DNA of 4,363 nucleotides from a virus (Duplodnaviria > Heunggongvirae > Uroviricota > Caudoviricetes), in IMG/VR virus record IMGVR_UViG_2711768013_000017. One strand, given 5' to 3'. The notes under the pieces are model-generated. The model ran no database searches, had not been told where the DNA came from, and saw only the letters and a list, made by a program, of their open reading frames with translations. Positions 1-403 of this stretch are shown in pieces; position 1 is the first letter of the stretch; every line of letters begins with the position of its first letter. A program made the position numbers and the translations under genes.

Positions 1-322
1 ACACGGTCAGGAACGGGCGCTGAATAATGCTCTTTCCGCTCTGCCATCACTTCAGCATCCGGACGTTCGCCAATTTTCGCCTCCCACGTCTCACCGAGCG
101 TGGTGTTTACGAAGGTTTTACGTTTTCCCGTATCCCCTTTCGTTTTCATCCAGTCTTTGACAATCTATCCCAGCAGATACGGGATATCGACATTTCTGCA
201 CCATTCCGGCGGGTATAGGTTTTATTGATGGCCTCATCCACACGCAGCAGCGTCTGTTCATCGTCGTGGCGGCCCATAATAATCTGCCGATCAATCAGCC
301 AGCTTTCCTCACCCGGCCCCCA
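1..322 (-). repeat. Chimeric partial copy of terminase large subunit gene A. 1..166 matches 1319..1484 (5 mismatches) and 167..322 matches 1102..1257 (2 mismatches). Same orientation as the intact gene, segment order permuted, junction out of frame.
   Basis: Direct base-by-base comparison within the window. The minus-strand translation of 167..322 gives [13 protein letters not shown]...SISRICWD, identical to the gpA residues encoded at 1102..1257. At the 166/167 junction the frame shifts by one and reads RLSKTG then stop. Confidence 0.85.
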
Positions 323-403
323 NNNNNNNNNNNNNNNNNNNNNNNNNNNNNNNNNNNNNNNNNNNNNNNNNNNNNNNNNNNNNNNNNNNNNNNNNNNNNN
401 NNN
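323..403. other. Run of 81 N: assembly or scaffold gap, or masked sequence
   Basis: Literal N characters in the sequence. The gap removes the 3' end of W and the expected start of the portal gene. Confidence 0.95.

Follow-up and report, generated by a model that had tools for sequence, protein, structure and literature searches.

The window, i.e., the whole stretch of DNA analysed here (4,363 nucleotides), contains a packaging region of the lambda type on its minus strand, together with a scaffold gap and a short block of sequence at its left end. The principal features are as follows, from left to right.

1..166, minus strand: piece 1 of the block, gpA amino acids 338-393, nuclease domain, identical at 161 of 166 positions (97.0%) to 1319-1484
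166..167, no strand: novel out-of-frame junction between A 1484 and A 1102, jumping back by 383 bp
167..322, minus strand: piece 2 of the block, gpA amino acids 414-465, nuclease domain, identical at 154 of 156 positions (98.7%) to 1102-1257
323..403, no strand: scaffold gap of 81 N, read from the sequence
404..574, minus strand: W, head-tail joining, codons 1-57 only, Pfam gpW 106.7 bits, profile positions 1-56 of 66
571..2496, minus strand: A, terminase large subunit, 641 aa, a full-length and intact open reading frame
2471..3016, minus strand: Nu1, terminase small subunit, 181 aa, Pfam Phage_Nu1 336.7 bits, full length
3186..3216, minus strand: cosN region, with the variant cohesive-end core GGGCGGAAGGCG (canonical lambda GGGCGGCGACCT), by sequence comparison
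4275..4363, plus strand: first 89 nt of IS2, with the terminal repeat starting at 4275 and the match to the related locus L001 stopping at 4274

The large terminase gene overlaps both Nu1 and W, and encodes a protein with the two expected domains, GpA_ATPase at amino acids 47-285 (172.8 bits) and GpA_nuclease at amino acids 322-600 (248.6 bits). It is present in a single copy in the window, as one unbroken frame of 641 codons, and an identical copy of the protein is encoded in 31 blocks of the collection. The truncated W is also matched by the NCBIfam profile phage_HTJ. Nu1 lies next to cos, which is found approximately 190 nt upstream of it, and the sequence to the right of Nu1 runs, in turn, through cos, a DUF3950 gene, a DUF1398 gene, and the fragment of IS2. 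Over 404-4274, the identity with the lambdoid prophages and phages of E. coli, such as PhiR49_1 and Kati, is 98.7-98.9%.

The right end of the window falls within a repeat. The related locus L023 runs on into the TnpA (276 bits) and TnpB (728 bits) of IS2, while L034, an independent IMG/VR contig that is 4,103 bp long in its entirety and 99.4% identical to 404-4363, stops at the same base as the window, 89 nt into the element. The insertion of IS2 downstream of the DUF1398 gene is located at the same site in the window, in L034 (4015-4103), and in L023 (1380-2700). The end shared by the window and L034 points to graph-based short-read assembly of the same type in both cases, and to a shared lineage marker. 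Because of this shared IS2 end and the odd length of the sequence, the window looks like a complete small scaffold of a short-read draft assembly that was broken at repeats.

The main contig (404-4363) is itself a patchwork of sequences. Its identity with L034 is 100% over 1754-4363, with all 25 of the differences between the two being concentrated in 404-1753, while perfect identity is found with L007 over 404-1197 and with L036 over 1079-1632. Among the complete genomes, no match above 99.1% was recovered over 404-2100, although each of the patches has perfect matches. This pattern reflects either the natural mosaicism of lambdoid modules or a chimeric assembly path that crosses between two co-assembled alleles, and the gene pool of these modules is naturally mosaic.

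The expectation that W should be followed by the portal gene B, which a sequence-only reading of the window had drawn from the lambda-like phages, is borne out by the relatives, given that the order Nu1-A-W-portal is found in all 28 of those checked for gene order or for the sequence to the left of W. These relatives include carriers of the identical gpA and of the rare cos variant. In the relatives, W has 68 codons and leads directly into the portal gene, whereas the window contains neither a complete W nor a portal. As that reading had described, W is cut by the 81 N after its codon 57 (574 down to 404 is exactly 57 codons), and position 404 is both the cut point of the gene and the left end of the main contig. 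In the relatives, a further 36 nt of W lie beyond this cut, followed by the portal gene, and the 81 gap bases correspond to the end of W (codons 58-68 plus the stop codon) and the opening 49 nt or so of the portal. The block that lies on the other side of the gap has 28% identity with the portal sequence expected there, which is the random level. The warning that W and B cannot be trusted at this point was right. In comparison with the lambda-like cos-Nu1-A-W-B module (PhiR49_1, Kati, and lambda itself), then, the window is the same in Nu1, A, and codons 1-57 of W, arranged in the canonical order, while the end of W and the portal of that module give way in the window to a gap of Ns and a shuffled fragment of A.

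The block at 1-322 consists of two direct-orientation pieces of gene A in swapped order (1319..1484, and then 1102..1257), and every coordinate that had been proposed for these pieces is exact. Both align without gaps and in direct orientation with their home positions, which lie within the intact gene A of the main contig (1102-1257 and 1319-1484), and a repeat search finds the same matches independently. These matches are far beyond chance (BLAST E ~1e-80), and piece 2 covers positions 98-149 of the Pfam GpA_nuclease profile. The donor breakpoints delimit a span of 383 bp, from 1102 to 1484. In the sense direction of A, codons 414-465 come before codons 338-393, that is, the sequence jumps backward by 383 bp, which is the geometry of the junction of a tandem duplication of that length, as correctly recognised from the sequence. 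The pieces are also joined out of frame, as had been claimed, with codon position 3 of piece 2 passing to codon position 2 of piece 1. The frame of A reads ...SRICWD up to the join, and then RLSKTG, before reaching a stop six codons past the join.

The pieces are not simply copies of the neighbouring gene. They differ from the adjacent A by five and two mismatches, respectively, all of which are synonymous third-position changes, located at the home coordinates 1198, 1225, 1387, 1390, 1399, 1405, and 1426. The allele represented by the block is a very common allele of A, found at 100% identity in complete E. coli genomes and in phages. Piece 1, for example, is 100% identical to the A gene of L002, L003, L006, L007, L008, L022, L025-L027, L031, L033, and L034, and piece 2 to that of L003, L007, L008, L022, L026, L031, and L034. 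Three of the loci that match both pieces perfectly (L003, L007, and L008) encode the same 641-aa gpA as the window. The closest relatives (L034, L031, L026, and L022), which share the rare cos variant and IS2 with the window, carry the allele of the block at 100% identity in 1102-1484, precisely where the main contig differs from them. With seven differences from the neighbouring A and a 100% match to the other allele, the block is therefore no recent copy of that gene, and, on the basis of these identities, the two pieces can be assigned to the same second allele of A, rather than to a duplicate of the adjacent gene.

The distribution of the differences between the alleles is also uneven. The L007-type allele differs from the A gene of the window at 14 sites, 12 of which are in 1198-1543, with none in 404-1197, and, because of this concentration, the block lies inside the only stretch in which leftover allele-specific sequence could arise. 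The block sequence is found at 4,689 places in 3,316 genomes, with up to five per genome, and the copy number of the gene is approximately 1.4 per carrying genome, i.e., multiple copies are common.

The join at 166/167 is effectively blunt. The donors share a single nucleotide (T166), and the flanks are identical at only one position in eight in the register that reproduces the sequence. This junction is also unique to the window in all of the collections searched. A 44-nt probe (22 nt on each side), run in megablast, which seeds only if the junction is contiguous, had 0 matches in 5,426 complete E. coli genomes and 0 in 50,697 phage records, and a 34-mer across the junction was absent from the contigs of species-representative genomes, from IMG/VR, and from the JGI metagenome contigs. 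No gene on record corresponds to the open reading frame that spans the junction. More than 3,300 complete genomes hold both pieces, which are colinear within 384 bp among the matches listed.

A number of simple routes to this join were rejected. Joining by microhomology was considered on the basis of an apparent similarity of six in eight positions between GACAATCT and GCCAATAT, which dissolves in the true register, where 1 nt is shared. Overlap-based merging of reads is excluded by the same single shared nucleotide, as is a de Bruijn mis-join through a shared k-mer, given that the donors have only this 1 nt in common. Simple SNP-bubble contigs of 166 and 156 nt would need a k-1 of approximately 63-64, and no single k fits both; the pieces are, in fact, asymmetric around their SNPs, with 68/58 nt and 96/32 nt on the two sides. 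A unitig built over a real tandem-duplication junction would have symmetric k-1 flanks, in contrast with this asymmetry. The join contains no N, which places its origin either in a read or in a merge with zero gap.

We do not regard the block as a genuine part of the phage genome here; most likely, it is an ordinary draft-assembly error, rather than the trace of a rearranged phage. It is probably a stray chimeric mini-contig of the second allele of A, mis-scaffolded beside W. A scaffold or assembly chimera was also the reading preferred from the sequence alone, and this preference is supported by the second allele, the unique junction, the intact and single-copy A, and the break of the contig in IS2. 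The block has the features of such a chimera, that is, read-length pieces at the end of a scaffold beside a gap of Ns, a second allele with 97-99% identity, and a junction that is not reproduced in the independent assemblies of related genomes. The sizes of the pieces (166 and 156 nt) and of their span (383 bp) are typical of reads and library fragments. The departure of the window from the lambda-like module is thus attributed to assembly, and not to biology.

The process probably began with a sample containing at least two near-identical lambda-like packaging modules, whether as two prophages in one genome or as two strains. The main contig (404-4363) would have been assembled from the IS2 boundary through cos, Nu1, and A to W, and the reads that stemmed from the other allele of A, in the only stretch where the alleles differ, would have been left over as a very short sequence. 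This leftover would comprise two read-length pieces of the 383-bp span, bluntly joined in everted order. The join may have formed in vitro, if one short library fragment was circularised or chimerically ligated so that its two ends met, or in silico, through mis-oriented or everted read pairs, concatenated mates, or the zero-gap concatenation of mini-contigs. The scaffolder would then have placed this mini-contig beyond the end of the main contig, across a gap estimated at 81 N, keeping the strand and mirroring the true order. The laboratory or software step behind the blunt join and the false scaffold link is the part of this sequence of events that we infer.

The order of the scaffold, [1319-1484][1102-1257]-N81-[404...], jumps backward twice, each time in the same direction and without a change of strand, which would be the signature of a single cause, that is, everted or mis-oriented pairs. 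Pairs in the wrong orientation, with inserts of approximately 400 bp, from mate-pair libraries are a documented source of scaffolder errors involving small contigs (bioRxiv 10.1101/025650). Errors of this class are caused by near-identical repeats, by pairs of the wrong orientation (everted, or from mate-pair libraries with paired-end contamination), or by chimeric junction reads. The window shares with the class of error described by Sahlin et al. (bioRxiv 10.1101/025650) a tiny contig at the end of a larger one, an estimated gap, a mirrored order with the strand kept, a span of approximately 400 bp, and repeat-bound contig ends, whereas the usual error of this class sits at a scaffold gap, unlike the N-free join at 166/167. 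A mate-pair library in the wrong orientation fits the mirrored order, but predicts gaps in the kb range, rather than of 0 and 81 nt, and is retained only as one candidate mechanism. Other points also sit uneasily with an artefact. The blunt join with its 1 nt in common is no shared-k-mer graph error, the lengths of the pieces fit no single-k SNP bubbles, a real tandem duplication would produce this junction and these everted read pairs just as well, and the halt of the main contig at 404 is left without explanation by the data.

An alternative is a real junction that has been misplaced, in which a second lambdoid prophage, or a co-occurring strain, would carry a 383-bp tandem duplication in the nuclease domain of A, breaking the frame, with the assembler recovering only the fragment that bears the junction and the scaffolder attaching this fragment wrongly beside W. 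The 1484-to-1102 geometry fits such a duplication exactly, with an end-to-start junction in direct orientation, the distinct allele of the block could come from the second prophage, and the everted read pairs that the duplication also produces would explain the direction of the scaffold error. An intragenic tandem duplication, however, has two full flanking copies, whereas the block has none; the neighbouring gene, present once, represents another allele, and the join is blunt and was found in no other genome. The junction lies beyond W and the gap of Ns, rather than between two copies inside A, and the near-identical copy of the parental segment that would be expected is replaced by one with seven differences that matches another allele at 100%. 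Nor can a tandem duplication be placed here, given that the neighbouring A is unbroken and present only once. In E. coli, duplications that form spontaneously usually do so at repeats or microhomology, and the join shares only 1 nt. The junction, moreover, was never seen in the more than 3,300 complete genomes that have the gene, nor in the contig collections, and the second backward jump, over the gap of Ns, would need a separate cause, while the sizes of the pieces are those of reads. A real but misplaced junction is thus considered unlikely. If it were true, the private 383-bp duplication that frameshifts the nuclease of gpA would represent an early inactivating step in the domestication of the prophage, although, even then, a private inactivating duplication in one prophage would be of little general interest.

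The scaffold taken at face value would indicate a real local rearrangement, in which shuffled fragments of the A gene of another prophage took the place of the last part of W and the first part of the portal, resulting in a defective packaging module. The presence of IS2 nearby would be compatible with this, as would the existence of cryptic lambdoid prophages whose packaging genes have decayed. It would, however, take three or more independent events (a foreign allele imported, an order permuted internally, and W/B deleted), and the arrangement is absent from the complete genomes, is linked to the main contig only through the gap of Ns, and contrasts with the colinearity of all the relatives, including those that share the cos variant and IS2, which makes it very improbable. 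Laboratory lambda DNA, from a cloning vector, size marker, or spike-in, is also a very improbable source of the block. The identity of lambda and its laboratory derivatives with the block is 99.7%, but this leaves one mismatch in 322 positions, against 100% for the natural prophage alleles, and contamination alone provides no explanation for the permuted join.

The reading of the block as a mis-scaffolded mini-contig has practical consequences for annotation. The left end of the scaffold, with its truncated W, missing portal, and extra, frame-broken fragment of terminase, should not be annotated or interpreted as biology, for example by calling the packaging module defective or rearranged. E. 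coli often contains several near-identical lambdoid prophages, and its draft assemblies are prone to this type of mis-scaffolding of stray alleles.

The cosN variant at the other end of the packaging region is part of the context of the window, and not of the artefact. The cohesive-end core is 12 nt long, and in its variant half (3194-3199, CGCCTT on the plus strand), five of the six right-half bases differ from the canonical sequence, which was found in all 18 of the site-containing loci among the first 21 fetched. The variant core is present in 83-158 of the 5,426 complete E. coli genomes, in 14 IMG/VR contigs, in the phage PhiR46_1, and in L034, and is a natural, minority form; no mention of it was found in the searchable literature. 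In the window, it is paired with a gpA protein that is identical to that of prophages with the canonical cos. Between the start of Nu1 and cosN, there is also an inverted repeat (3041-3097), with arms of 26 nt that are 85% complementary and a loop of 5 nt, which we take to be the oppositely oriented gpNu1-binding R sites of cosB in lambda, and thus an ordinary feature of this region.
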